Assembly (NCBI GenBank): GCA_951406725.2
Contig: OX597818.1
Span: forward strand, 27,218,001 to 27,282,000
Direction of reading: 5' to 3'
Source: Octopus vulgaris
Taxonomy: Eukaryota
DNA length: 64,000 nt
Shown in pieces: positions 20,910-28,619 of this stretch. Both the position numbers and the translations under genes were made by a program. Below the pieces are notes generated by a model, which was not told the origin of the DNA, made no database searches, and saw only the letters and a list, made by a program, of their open reading frames with translations. Position 1 is the stretch's first letter, and every line of letters starts with the position of its first letter.

Positions 20910-20970
<61 letters not shown>
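19985..20970. repeat. Compound (TA)n/(TG)n/(TACA)n microsatellite field with embedded retroelement tail fragments
   Basis: Seen directly. Confidence 0.9.
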
Positions 20971-20971
<1 letters not shown>

Positions 20972-21371
20972 TAGCAGTATCACCCGGCGTTGCTCGGGTT
21001 TGTAAGGGAAATATCTATATAAGCATTTTTAGAGAGTTATAGCCAAAAAATAGCAAAAAAATGCATTAAAAATGGGAAAAAAATGATGGTAAATTTTTTT
21101 TAAATCGTTGACTCATCGTAGACATTTTTACAGAGTTACTTCCCTTATATAATAGCGAAAAAATGCATTAAATTGGGAAAAAATGATGGTAAATTTTTTT
21201 TTAAATCGTAGACTCATCGTAGACGCATGCTAATACCCAGAAGGGCTCGATATGAATCACGATATGAATCACGACTATAAGATACCCGGTTTTTGCACCG
21301 CAAAATGTGGGAGTAGTTAGGAATCTAAATCGTAGGAGACAGACACACAACCTTACTTTTATATATAAAGA
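20971..21371 (-). mobile_element. Complete non-autonomous Helitron (401 bp)
   Basis: Minus strand reads A|TCTTTATATATAAAAG ... hairpin CCCGAGCAACGCCGGG-TGATACTG-CTAG|T: 5' TC, 3' hairpin + CTAG, inserted between A and T. Confidence 0.85.
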
Positions 21372-21875
21372 TATATTTGTGCAACAACTAAAACATTCGG
21401 TTGTGCAAATTGTTTACACAGGAAACCTGCTCTGTGTGGCGGTAATTGCCATTTTTGTGGATCTGTTTCAGCTTTTTTAGCGATTTCTGTTTTGGCGACT
21501 TCAAGCCATGAAGTCGTTGTTCTAAAAGAACGCTGGTCTCCTTGACAACGCATTACGACGTTGATTTCCTTACACTCCCTTCCCCACAGCTTCACGAGGG
21601 AGGGAAGAAAGGGGAGAAGCAACACAGGTGCAGGTGTGAGCGTGGACGCCAACTCCGCCGCCATCGACACACGAAAAAATATGCATTAAAATGGAATAAA
21701 AAATGATGTTAAATTATTTTTAAAATCATAGACTCATCGTAGACGCGCGCTAATACCCAGACGGGCTCGATATGAATCACGACTATAAGATACCCGAATT
21801 TGGTTAAACTGCACCGCAAAATGTGGGAGTAGTTAGGAATCTAAATCGAAGGGGACAGACACTCACACAACTACA

Positions 21876-22914: not shown

Positions 22915-24495
22915 ACACTTCATATCGTTATGTAGATGCATCAGGACCTCTCTATTTAAGTGGTGCCATGAAACTGACAGTTTCTGTGTGTTCTTGAATG
23001 GCTAACAAACATCTATGCTGCAATTGTTTTTGTTTCAGCACACAATCTCAGACCAAGTCACTTGCTATGCAAGTACATCTCCGTAATTTTCTAAAATCAC
23101 AGTGGATAAATGCCAACAATGACCTTCTCAGGCTCTCCAATATTTCAATTTCTAAACAGAAACAATCAGGGTCAGGGTTGCAAAAAATTCATAATTTCTC
23201 AAATTTTCTTTTTTATAGCACATAAATGTATTTATGGGGGAAAATATTGAAAAGCACCAATACATGTGAGAGTGATAAAGAAACAAGGAGGGTTGTTATT
23301 GGATATGCTAGAAATAACAACCAAATCGCTCACTTTTCCCTGTGAAAATATTAACAATTAAAAAAATTTTTTTTACCGAAAATGTTCTTCCCATGGTTTT
23401 GAAGTGGGAAAAAATTGGCCAAAATAGGTTCGGAATGGGATGATGAGGGAGGAGGTGTAAAAAAGTGTTTACAAAACTTTTTTCATTCAAAGATGCCCTC
23501 CTCCTCCACCATCATTTCAAAGGCTGTGGTTTTAAAAAATAAGGAAATTCCCTGAAAACATTTTCCCTACAAATTTCTTTATAATCATAATCTATACCAT
23601 TTGAAAGAGATTTGTATAAATTTTCATTAAAAGATATCCATCTTCCTGAAAGTTATGAGGGAAAAAAGTCAGATTGTGCAAATTTTCCAAAACTCCTTTC
23701 TCCACCCTCTCAGAAAAATTCTTTCTCATAAATCCCTATATACTAAGAAAATTTTGTTAAAAAGTATCCATTTTTCTGGCTGTCATGAGGCAACATCTGT
23801 AGTAATGCTCTTTTATATATACGATTTTTTCATTTCATGTTTATTTTATTCATTGTTTGCAATGTTCTCTCTCCCCACTCTCTCTCTCATACATACACAC
23901 TGCAAAGCTTACAGAAGGGCTGCTGAACTGAAATCTCTATGTTGCTTTGAGAGGTAGGTAAAAATTGACAAACTATTTCTCCCGGTGTTGTTGGACAACT
24001 GTGATGTTTGTTTAAAAAAGAGAGATTATGACTGTGATAAAATAAGGAAAGCAGTTCTTACTAAGCAAGTGAGCATTATTATACAAAGAAATAATTAGAT
24101 GTAAGATATAAAAATTATTAGAATTGGGAATCAAATGCTAGAGGAGCTAGCAAAAAGCTGCCTGGAGGGTGGTCTGAGTATTAGCTAATACTTTGCATGT
24201 TCCACGTCCTTGTATTGTTGTTTTTTTCTTGTTGTGTTTGTTCTTCATTTTTTAAAATTTACTATATATATATACACACATACAAACATGTATATAAATA
24301 CATAGTGAAACTAATAGAAATGAAACTAATATATATATATATATATATAAAATAAATATAAGAGAGTGGTCACTATATGGCTCACTCTAGCACCAGTTAA
24401 TCCAAAAGGTTTCAACCACAAAAATACATGTTTCCCATGAAAGTCAGTACGATTGTTAGCTCACACGGACAGGGCAAATAAAAAATAACAAAATA

Positions 24496-24591
24496 CAGAT
24501 TATTTTGGGACAATTGTTTCGCTATTAATGAATTAAATGTAATTTTACTTACAATAAAATCCACTTGTAGCTCTTCAGCCAAAACTATCTG
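24496..24591 (-). ncRNA. Type I hammerhead ribozyme (copy 1)
   Basis: Reverse complement of 25221-25316. Confidence 0.88.
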
Positions 24592-25220
24592 GATGAAATC
24601 CACTCAATCACACGCCAGATTTTACCATAACGATAAATACGCGTGTGGTTCAATTGATTACATCCGACGTTATAATTCAAATGCCCCAACTAACAGCGCG
24701 CCAAACTTTCACGGAAAACAAATACAGCATTTAGAAATAAATGCAGCATAATTATAATTAATTAATAAGGGTGAGAGAATTAGATACTAATTTAATAGTA
24801 TATCTATTCTACACCAAGTGGCCTAGTGCTCCGACTTTCATGGGAAACATGTATTTTTGTGGTTGAAACCTTTTGGATTAACTGGTGCTAGAGTGAGCCA
24901 TATAGTGACCACTCTCTTATATTTATTTTGTAAAAATATTATAATATATTATAAAATATTATAATAATCCAGGTTTCTCGGAGCACTAGGCCACTTGGTG
25001 TAGAATAGATATACTATTAAATTAGTATCTAATTCTCTCACCCTTATTAATTAATTATAATTATGCTGCATTTATTTCTAAATGCTGTATTTGTTTTCCG
25101 TGAAAGTTTGGCGCGCTGTTAGTTGGGGCATTTGAATTATAACGTCGGATGTAATCAATTGAACCACACGCGTATTTATCGTTATGGTAAAATCTGGCGT
25201 GTGATTGAGTGGATTTCATC

Positions 25221-25316
25221 CAGATAGTTTTGGCTGAAGAGCTACAAGTGGATTTTATTGTAAGTAAAATTACATTTAATTCATTAATAGCGAAACAATT
25301 GTCCCAAAATAATCTG
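25221..25316 (+). ncRNA. Type I hammerhead ribozyme (copy 2), predicted cleavage after C25303
   Basis: CAGATAGTTTTGG-CTGAAGA-GCTA..43 nt..TAGC-GAAAC-AATT-GTC-CCAAAATAATCTG. Intact CUGANGA/GAAA/GUC core and 13-position stem I (1 mismatch). Confidence 0.9.
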
Positions 25317-25754
25317 TATTTTGTTATTTTTTATTTGCCCTGTCCGTGTGAGCTAACAATCGTACTGACTTTCATGGGAAACATGTATTTTTGTGGTTGA
25401 AACCTTTTGGATTAACTGGTGCTAGAGTGAGCCATATAGTGACCACTCTCTTATATTTATTTTGTAAAAATATTATAATATATTATAAAATATTATAATA
25501 ATCCAGGTTTCTCGGAGCACTAGGCCACTTGGTGTAGAATAGATATACTATTAAATTAGTATCTAATTCTCTCACCCTTATTAATTAATTATAATTATGC
25601 TGCATTTATTTCTAAATGCTGTATTTGTTTTCCGTGAAAGTTTGGCGCGCTGTTAGTTGGGGCATTTGAATTATAACGTCGGATGTAATCAATTGAACCA
25701 CACGCGTATTTATCGTTATGGTAAAATCTGGCGTGTGATTGAGTGGATTTCATC

Positions 25755-25850
25755 CAGATAGTTTTGGCTGAAGAGCTACAAGTGGATTTTATTGTAAGTA
25801 AAATTACATTTAATTCATTAATAGCGAAACAATTGTCCCAAAATAATCTG
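25755..25850 (+). ncRNA. Type I hammerhead ribozyme (copy 3), predicted cleavage after C25837
   Basis: Identical to copy 2, 534 bp downstream. Confidence 0.9.
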
Positions 25851-26217
25851 TATTTTGTTATTTTTTATTTGCCCTGTCCGTGTGAGCTAACAATCGTACT
25901 GACTTTCATGGGAAACATGTATTTTTGTGGTTGAAACCTTTTGGATTAACTGGTGCTAGAGTGAGCCATATAGTGACCACTCTCTTATATTTATTTTGTA
26001 AAAATATTATAATATATTATAAAATATTATAATAATCCAGGTTTCTCGGAGCACTAGGCCACTTGGTGTAGAATAGATATACTATTAAATTAGTATCTAA
26101 TTCTCTCACCCTTATTAATTAATTATATATATATATATATACACACACACACATAGTGAATGTATTAATAGTGAAATTATTAAAACTGAAAGTATTATCT
26201 CACATTACAATAGAGAT

Positions 26218-26897
26218 AGTTAGTTAGTTAGTTAGTTAATTTGGCTCAAAAGCAAATAGCAAGGCCATGTAGGGGGACATGGAGTTAAGTACAGGGTGGT
26301 GTTCATGTAAAGAGTTCAGGCCACTTGAGGTCCAGGGAGGCTTTGAACAAAGCGGTCGTCGGCATCTTCACCATCTCGTCTGGCAGCTTGTTCCACGGAT
26401 CCGCAATCCGGACGGAGAAAGCTCCTCTCCTTCGATTGAGATGAAATCGTCGCAGGTAGAGCTTTTCGGAATGACCCCGCAGCCGACGCTCCGGAGCAGG
26501 AGTGAAGAACAGCTCTTTCGAGAGGTTGCACTTCCCGCTTATGATGTTGTGGGCGAGAATAAGATCACCACGGCGGCGGCGTTTTTCAAGAGAATAAAGG
26601 TCGAGCGTCCTCAGCCTTTCTTCGTAGGACAAATTTTTGAGACCATGAACCATGTGGGTAGCCAGCCTCTGGACTCTTTCGAGATGCTGTATGTCTTTGA
26701 GGAGATAAGGAGAAGAGGCTTGAATCCCATACTCCAATATGGGTCTCACCAGCGTGACATAGAGTGGCAGGAATATGGCTGCTGTGAGCATTCCGAATGA
26801 CCGTCGAATCAAAAACAGAATTCCGCGCGCTTTGTTGGCAGCATGGACGCACTGGGCCGAAGGCGAAAAGGAGGAATCCACCAAGATACCCGACATG
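26218..26897 (-). mobile_element. Young 5'-truncated CR1-type LINE with (TAAC)n tail
   Basis: Uninterrupted ORF 26303-26896 (LYVTLVRPILEY, LERVQRLAT, SYEERL..L.LYSLEKRR.RGDLI, RLRGH, WNKLP). CpG-rich. (GTTA)n at 26218-26239 on the plus strand. Confidence 0.92.
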
Positions 26898-28619
26898 TAC
26901 TACTGCAATAGTGTAAGAGATAAGAGATTGCTCTAGGCTTGCATTAGGCAAGAAGTTGAACATTTTTTGGCCCATGACACTGCATTGACCGTAAGGCATG
27001 TGTAAAATTTGAATGATATCAGTTGGGTAGTTCTTGAGTTTTAATGATGCACACATACAGACACACAGACAGACACACATTCTCAATTTTATATACATAA
27101 ATAGTTTAAAAAGAGCATTAATGGCATCAAGTTCACCATTACCAGAGAGCCTGCAATGATCTTAGGCACTGTCCCTTTTTCCAGACTGAGCAAGTAAACA
27201 ATTTCAACAATTTGTGAAGAAAAACACCTTCACTTCCAATTTTACTTTCATGGGACAGCAGACAGAAAGACAGCGAGGAAGGCATTCCAATTTCTTTTTA
27301 TCTTTTGCTATCTTTTTATACTTCTGCAACTTTTTTTGGGGTCTATAATTGAAGATTTAAAGTAACAAGACAACAAACAAGACAATACAGGATAAGACAG
27401 GAAATAAGAAACAGTGTATGATGAAACCAGCTGATTAAGAGGTGTAAACATGACTGAATATAAATAAGCAGGATACCTACATTATCAAAAAGTAAGTCAA
27501 CAGGTGTGTAAAGGGAGCATGGATGATGAGTGGCAATAAGGAGAGGGAGTGTACCAAATAAACATGAACAAAGAAAAAAATATTAGGAGAAATGCAATGA
27601 AGCATGACATGACTACATAAATAAAGAACAGCTGCTTAAGTCAAAAAATATTTTAACAAGAAGACAACAGCAGGTAATTTGGTACTCCTGTGATATCACA
27701 TCAGAGTCAACAAATTGCTTTCTATAGCCTCATTATCATAAAATCTTTATTATAATAAAACATACAATGAAGATATCAATTTCATCATCATCATTAAATT
27801 CGTGGTTGTCATCATCATCATCTTGGTTGTCATCCATCACTATTATAATTTCGCATCCGTTTTCCAATCTAGCATGGATTGGCTGCTTTGACAGGAATCA
27901 ACAAGCCAGTGAAGTGTCATTCTCCAATATCTACCTTAGCATGATTTCTATGGTTGGATATCCTTTCTAACACCAATCATTTCCCCCTTTCTTTTCTATT
28001 ACCCACTCCTATTTTATCTTTTCTTCACATACCACATTACCCACCCATGTATAACATAGAATAGAATTGCATCTCTTCCTACTCAATCCTCACTGCAACT
28101 TTACCATCCTCTAACACTTGCTAACTCACTGATACTATTTTTCATTTTCTGTCCTATTACTTTCTTTCCTAATACTGTTTCTGTTAGCCTTTCCTCTACC
28201 ACCCTCTTCAACAATAATCCCATATAACTCCAATATGAATTGCCTTTTACCCTAACATAGAAGACAGATGGATCTACCCAATCACTAGGTCCACTTTCCC
28301 CTCTTCTCTATCCTATCCCAATTCTGTTCCCTCTGTTATTCTTTCCATTAATATCTTCTCACAATAAAATTGTTTTATTCATCATGAATGCTTTCTTTTG
28401 CATTACAAACTGAAAGGTACCATAATAGTGCCCAGAACACAGGGTTTACAAGGGCTCTTTTGTCATGTTGACAGCAAGGCAACCTCTATAGTGCTGGTGC
28501 CATGAAAAAAAAAGCATTCAGTTGGTATTAGGAAGGGCATCTAGCCATAGACAACATGCCAAAAATGAGACACTGGGGCAAGATGTGGTCATCTGAACTG
28601 CTAAATCCTGTCAAACTAC

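Follow-up and report, generated by a model that had tools for sequence, protein, structure and literature searches.

The tandem 534-bp array at 24349-26127 of the 64,000-nucleotide stretch of Octopus vulgaris DNA analyzed here (the window) is one insertion of a young, dispersed and active repeat family that carries no open reading frame (ORF). Judged from the sequence, it is probably a non-LTR retrozyme copied in trans by a Penelope-like enzyme with reverse transcriptase (RT) and GIY-YIG domains, mainly from a 534-nt RNA circle produced by hammerhead cutting and ligation. The class of non-LTR retrozymes is known and its dependence on Penelope-like elements (PLEs) was argued in 2020 and 2026, and this is not a new kind of system. 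What is new here are the outward-facing arms into (TA)n, the two fixed ends and the pairing of one A with one B end in a retrozyme family. The features of the locus are listed below, in a monomer numbering in which position 1 is 25304, the first base 3' of a predicted cut:

24330-24348, no strand: (TA)n target microsatellite on the left, from the sequence
24349-24834, - strand: left arm, 486 bp, with its 3' end outward at fixed site B (monomer position 160) and its 5' end at position 209
24496-24591, - strand: type I hammerhead of the left arm, mirrored from the + copy; core start 24578, predicted cut between 24509 and 24508
24833-24834, no strand: head-to-head arm junction with 2-nt microhomology
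24833-26127, + strand: right arm, 2.43 tandem 534-bp units, with its 3' end outward at fixed site A (monomer position 290)
25221-25316, + strand: type I hammerhead 1; core 25234-25240, stem II 25241-25291, GAAA 25292-25295, predicted cut after 25303
25304-25837, + strand: sole complete cut-to-cut monomer in the window, 534 nt, 32% GC
25755-25850, + strand: type I hammerhead 2; predicted cut after 25837
25998-26127, + strand: 130-bp "tail" between start sites B (25997) and A (26127)
26128-26141, no strand: (TA)7 target microsatellite on the right, from the sequence

Self-comparison of the window gives an exact 534-bp period across 24833-26127 (1,295 bp, 2.425 units) and makes 24349-24834 the exact reverse complement of 24978-25463 (486 bp). 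The sequence-only reading that preceded this work had described about 2.4 head-to-tail units plus a 486-bp inverted copy by eye; both are exact on computation, but the inverted match belongs to this insertion as its second arm and is not a separate copy. End B lies at 24349 and end A at 26127 with the arms overlapping by 2 nt, and the 130-bp tail is present at one end only, as in two-armed insertions of the family. The release of monomers that had been predicted is limited here to one complete cut-to-cut unit (25304-25837), and the term "self-excising" is right for RNA alone, with no excision at the DNA level. The array is non-coding, low in GC (32%) and without LTR features, as retrozymes are, with no ORF of 100 aa and no tblastn match to a PLE protein. 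The arms at 24349-25463 also form a perfect 486-bp inverted repeat, from which a read-through transcript would give long double-stranded RNA, and about half of the loci read share this two-arm build. On the right, the insertion is adjoined by a high-copy LINE-like 3' fragment (26217-26899, - strand; a 198-aa frame with no Pfam match). Another repeat with ~520-bp spacing lies beside TA runs at 20970-21870 and 27040-27100; similar sequence flanks two further loci (L120 and L180), and it is apparently a separate mobile family.

The three type I hammerheads claimed for the array were borne out in their cores, stems and GUC triplet. CTGAAGA cores start at 25234 and 25768 on the + strand and at 24578 on the - strand. 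Stem I pairs 25221-25233 with 25304-25316 over 13 positions, 12 of them paired and one an A-A mismatch, while stem II (GCTA 25241-25244 with TAGC 25288-25291) is lengthened by a long hairpin to ~51 nt in total. G25292-A25295 follows, then stem III pairs A25295-T25302 and C25296-G25301 and closes a palindromic AATT loop, with the cleavage triplet GUC at 25301-25303. Scanning for the type I motif, as had been proposed, gave a divided outcome: a strict descriptor matches these three sites and no others in the 64 kb of the window, and it matches none of 2,000 dinucleotide-shuffled monomers, whereas Rfam reported nothing at gathering score, nor any hammerhead family up to E 5, only composition-driven miRNA matches, a miss that the long stem II may explain. 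In an alignment of 10 hammerhead copies from lineages down to ~73% identity, 95.7% of cells are paired, variation in the core is confined to N7, and compensatory changes affect 8/28 pairs (6 of them in stem I), counts that are inflated by the relatedness of the copies. The covariation score was reached by none of 500 shuffles, and slid controls drop to 32-40% paired. The motif looks to be under selection, and self-cleavage of the transcript is predicted from structure and covariation. Folded as a circle, the monomer has a predicted energy of -148.3 kcal/mol (40 dinucleotide shuffles give z -6.3), and this structure includes hammerhead stems I and II; in the predicted local fold the pairing probability of stem I is only ~0.26. 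Cutting as a dimer is probable because stem III is palindromic and only 2 bp long, and dimeric folding has been explained for hammerheads with short palindromic stem III (PMC4209133). At 25260-25265 the stem II hairpin also contains a hexamer resembling a splice donor, GTAAGT here and GTGAGT elsewhere in the family, which is retained in 10/10 aligned copies; it is also one side of the hairpin, and either constraint could account for its conservation. An intron overlaps the hammerhead of Drosophila Penelope (PMC4209133).

The genome searched comprises 2.8 Gb in 227 contigs. A 15-nt hammerhead-core pattern has 2,597 exact matches genome-wide (reversed control 1) and a 20-nt pattern from elsewhere in the unit has 1,983 (control 0); the first 98 core matches on one contig (C1) fall into 37 loci, which extrapolates to ~980 loci and supplies the genome-wide copy number that the sequence-only reading had thought worth obtaining. 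We read 76 loci, made up of the best 40 of 1,146 candidates, a set that is biased to near-identical copies and includes the window locus, and 36 of the C1 loci. The best 40 are 99-100% identical copies on many contigs, and dozens of such copies on many chromosomes support the very recent activity suggested from the window. No ORF lies in or beside the arrays at the 76 loci, in agreement with a non-coding unit. The period is 532-535 across loci and 503-506 in an older lineage, and the repeat closes on itself in all. The family spans three or more lineages, the older of which share the same layout; arrays reach about 12-13 full units and arms up to 6.8 kb. With 190/210 young hammerhead cores intact, the retrozyme architecture, tandem head-to-tail non-coding units that each carry a type I hammerhead, is upheld across the family. 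The other 20/210 cores are non-canonical. Among public sequencing runs, five organism labels contain 57% or more of the unit's words, which points to a family common to related samples or species.

The route of insertion can be read from the ends. Insertions consist of a single arm or of two arms that meet at their 5' ends, and the 3' ends face the host. In the first 40 loci, 26/66 arm 3' ends fall exactly at position 290 (A) and 21/66 exactly at 160 (B), with most others within a few nt; the two sites lie 130 nt apart, B 160 nt and A 290 nt past the cleavage site. All but one of these ends (65/66) are followed by at least six TA in 25 nt (window background 3.4%), and inside (TA)n target-site duplications are not readable. 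Two arms are present at 42/76 loci, of which 39 are A+B, 0 A+A, 0 B+B and 3 unassignable (binomial p 1.8e-12), so that A+B holds in 39/39 assignable cases, two of them (L040 and L105) internally rearranged. The one-armed loci comprise 18 B, 15 A and 1 other, although one of those counted (L140) has a second arm beyond the stretch read. Of 37 arm junctions, 32 are blunt or have an overlap of 1-4 nt, and arm 5' ends spread over the whole unit. Full units per arm fall off roughly geometrically (47 arms: 28, 8, 5, 2, 1, 1, 1 and one of 13).

Two fixed 3' ends with a tail at one end, an inverted 5'-truncated arm, partial tandems and a (TA)n target are the marks of PLE mobilization. PLEs are described as having partial tandems and, next to them, an inverted copy truncated at its 5' end; a tail of 30-40 bp is often found at just one end, and the targets are (TA)n (PMC8557442). 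A PLE protein, predicted as a dimer, cuts AT-rich DNA on both strands and extends them, with synthesis starting from a pair of internal RNA sites that delimit the tail (PMC11167929). As the A/B tail signature is also found in autonomous PLE families of this genome, mobilization by Penelope-type twin target-primed reverse transcription is highly likely, and the insertion ends thus bear out the Penelope route first put forward from the window. We infer that each end of the double-strand cut primes at its own site. The rule of 39/39 A+B is a quantitative constraint that any Penelope mechanism must explain, and the family gives direct genomic evidence of a retrozyme integrating by the Penelope route. 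It has also been proposed, for vertebrate retrozymes (bioRxiv 10.64898/2026.07.22.740005), that single units insert and are then locally amplified to satellites by unequal crossover, and the mosaic variants of some arrays described below could be gene conversion. However, young insertions that are nearly identical have multi-unit runs in each of their inverted arms, with a shared haplotype, and unit counts per arm fall off roughly geometrically, as RT drop-off predicts, so that this origin is very improbable. Near-identical tandem repeats are also hard to assemble and the window locus is bridged by no single record, but an assembly artefact is extremely improbable when the same ends and the A+B rule recur on more than 15 contigs, haplotypes are locus-specific, and 19 public runs from 7 studies contain at least half of the unit's words.

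The element at 11.3-13 kb of the window, which the sequence-only reading had offered as a source of the enzyme, was rejected as a partner. It is a decayed, 5'-truncated and frameshifted PLE with no DNA similarity to the 534-bp unit, and its closest relatives are 72-87% identical, many with stops. A partner search of the animal's own genome with three PLE proteins and Pfam GIY-YIG, the clades Naiad, Hydra and EN-minus being outside the search, found four young autonomous PLE families with open frames of 753, 781, 775 and 775 aa, a CX4CxxC linker motif and TA targets; in one of them 150/150 scored copies are identical over 233 aa. Their tails are 30-50 nt long, shorter than the 130 nt of the present family, which speaks against a simple match. 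In one autonomous family the tail lies at one end in 5/5 complete two-armed loci (a sixth had one end uncaptured), and it likewise lies at one end in another (L097). The proteins of the four families (L090-L104, L153-L158, L160-L170 and L171-L178) are 45-56% identical, and each family has a separate upstream ORF; in three of the four, the frame overlap holds a T run like a -1 frameshift site, as noted for PLEs (PMC8557442). By eye, the 753-aa family has an apparent U3-A8 variant minimal hammerhead near its 3' end, and in one autonomous family the core reads CCGAAGA.

Between these four families and the unit there are only AT-rich low-complexity BLAST matches. A 13-copy nhmmer profile of the unit gave 0 matches with filters against 62 PLE-locus sequences (positive control 127) and two without, one in the flank beyond the PLE end (L090) and one weak (L071; E 2e-4, high bias). 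Linkage of the unit to PLE ORFs, a check suggested earlier, was not found: none adjoins it at the 76 loci or at 27 older-lineage loci. PLE fragments lie near 6/76 and 2/27 of these, none adjoining the unit as a pseudo-LTR (pLTR), and those examined are separate insertions, most behind their own TA runs. At these loci the unit thus lacks the RT and GIY-YIG ORF between pLTRs that defines an autonomous PLE. The same results weigh on the proposal that the unit is itself the pseudo-LTR of a further autonomous PLE and the arrays its ORF-less by-products. The architecture is that of PLE ends, retrozyme-pLTR homology is reported in Xenopus (Li et al.), and with 76 young or middle loci read of ~980 estimated a rare ORF-bearing copy could be missed; yet the absence of an adjoining PLE ORF at both sets of loci, the separateness of nearby fragments and the self-closure of the repeat at its own period across lineages render it improbable.

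Within the Penelope route, the remaining question is the template. None of 104 arm 5' ends lies within 5 nt of the predicted cut (67 loci, leaving out 9 that are rearranged, truncated or divergent), a result that is also compatible with a uniform spread of arm starts (p 0.11), and in 235 unit junctions from 70 loci the scissile bond is free of indels. Since arms run across the cut, none start there and junctions are indel-free, the template was continuous, either a circle or an uncleaved multimer, and a linear cleaved monomer as sole template was rejected. Among 136 full units from 55 loci (identity >90%, <=8 indel bases), substitutions between units are 1.4 within loci vs. 11.0 between loci (1.07 vs. 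2.54 in the biased first set and 1.72 vs. 13.98 in the C1 set), and opposite arms of a locus share a haplotype (0.9). In the 18 loci with at least three units, 150 substitutions are in every unit (10 of these locus-private), 32 in one unit and 10 in a subset. Arrays are therefore mostly single-haplotype, which favors a circular monomer, and given PLE mobilization these patterns make the circle a fairly probable main template. Of these long arrays, 7/18 are mosaic, with subset variants that lack periodicity and could also stem from assembly polishing; the periodic variants expected from multimeric circles were not seen.

The mosaic arrays, whose subset variants are not expected from one circle alone, favor a template that is an uncleaved linear read-through multimer, copied by the same Penelope-type twin priming, with the hammerhead an accessory for trimming or regulation and no circle. 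The lack of run-off at the cut and the precise junctions fit it as well, and hammerhead mutants of the element PAc insert normally in vitro (PMC11167929). Additionally, 14 of the 20 non-canonical cores are one U4C change that has spread to three loci (L033, L062 and L128) and is fixed in two of them, from which canonical cleavage may not be needed. However, a purely linear route, we infer, only shortens arrays and cannot lengthen them or carry a new variant to every unit, whereas many haplotypes each form uniform arrays and the 10 locus-private variants are fixed in all units. The hammerhead stems also covary across 73%-identical lineages, and we regard a solely linear template as possible but unlikely. 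With the circle as the main template, uncleaved multimers probably serve too, as the 7/18 mosaic arrays and the spread of the core variant indicate. Mosaic variants also occur inside the hammerhead core (U4C at position 466 in L033, L062 and L128; A15.1G at position 526 in L057), which suggests that copying may shift to uncleaved multimers when cutting is impaired. Among dimers of Xenopus retrozymes, 1/9 cleaved and 8/9 did not (bioRxiv 10.64898/2026.07.22.740005), while for retrozymes of mussel, coral and axolotl cleavage, circles and RtcB ligation have been shown and PLEs proposed as carriers (PMC7229834).

No A-to-I signature was seen among the 136 full units (private A>G 14 vs. T>C 12). 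On the RNA strand, locus-private substitutions are skewed, with G>A 20 vs. C>T 5 in a unit of 96 G and 75 C. Among the public sequencing runs listed that contain the unit's words none is on record as RNA, and their contigs show neither ends nor level. A 565-nt contig corresponding to one monomer turn in one run was set aside as a sign of a circle; thin DNA coverage of a high-copy repeat gives the same, and the depth of that run relative to the neighboring LINE resembles a large, presumably DNA run.

On the reading that we favor, tandem arrays would be transcribed and their hammerheads are predicted to cut after GUC, probably as dimers; the monomers would then be closed by an RtcB-type ligase, as in the animals in which this has been described (PMC7229834). 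The enzyme, presumably of Penelope type, would cut both strands of (TA)n, and the 3' ends would prime at internal sites of the RNA, A for one end and B for the other, a step for which the ends and the target are observed directly. Each cDNA would go round its template 0-13 turns before stopping at random, and the arms, both 5'-truncated, would be joined head-to-head by blunt or microhomology repair; the architecture of the insertions is the observed outcome of this putative process. In a minority of events uncleaved multimers are probably the template. A wider reading, which we hold tentatively and somewhat short of probable, is that a Penelope enzyme dimer binds the 534-nt circle, with which it has no sequence in common, that the subunits start at A or B, and that both roll to write arrays de novo. 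If true, the strict A+B rule would mean that the inverted arm and tail of Penelope elements arise generally from asymmetric twin priming, and partners would be recognized by RNA structure and not by homology. The family thus bears on how retrozymes move, on circles as transposition intermediates and on the way in which Penelope elements acquire their inverted arm and tail. With this young non-coding substrate and four autonomous enzyme families, also young, in one genome, template type and partner choice are accessible in vitro.

Metazoan non-LTR retrozymes (PMC7229834) share with this family tandem non-coding units of GC <45% with one type I hammerhead per unit, a 2-bp stem III with a tetraloop, thousands of copies, a self-paired predicted circle and coexisting PLEs. 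Their monomers are ~170-400 nt, whereas the unit here is 534 nt with a long stem II; their expression, cleavage and circles have been shown, whereas those of the octopus family are predicted. The words "inverted" and "target site" are absent from the available text of that paper, and two-armed insertions and fixed start sites are features of the present family. EN+ PLEs with a Neptune/Nematis-type linker (PMC8557442; PMC11167929) have the inverted 5'-truncated arm, partial tandems, optional one-end tail, two internal start sites, (TA)n target and a hammerhead upstream of the start sites in common with it, but here there is no ORF, the tail is 130 nt vs. 30-40, arms hold up to 13 units, and the hammerhead is canonical where theirs is minimal. 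Non-autonomous PLEs of Chlamys such as MRC1 (PMC8557442) are likewise ORF-less, pLTR-like and active, with multicopy head-to-tail insertions; they are without canonical hammerheads and their 3' end resembles an autonomous partner, whereas here a hammerhead is present and no similarity to a partner was found. For vertebrate non-LTR retrozymes (bioRxiv 10.64898/2026.07.22.740005) the same PLE dependence is argued, and 534 nt falls within their 51-972 bp. The evidence there is co-occurrence and pLTR phylogeny over 35 genomes, no mollusc among them, whereas here it is the insertion footprint, pLTR homology not having been found. A repeat annotation of an octopus lists 31 recently active Penelope-like families, and the words ribozyme and retrozyme are absent from its main text as available, although its supplement or library might hold the unit (PMC13282606). 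In the literature searched, subscription journals, Repbase/Dfam and supplements aside, we found no cephalopod retrozyme and no fixed A/B ends or pairing described for retrozymes.

Other hammerhead-bearing sequences surround these insertions. At least five further hammerhead families occur in the flanks of the loci read (L047, L053, L106, L137, L139, L044, L050, L111 and L119), one of which has two same-strand copies 439 bp apart in the L111 flank, and the genome is rich in hammerhead-bearing elements.
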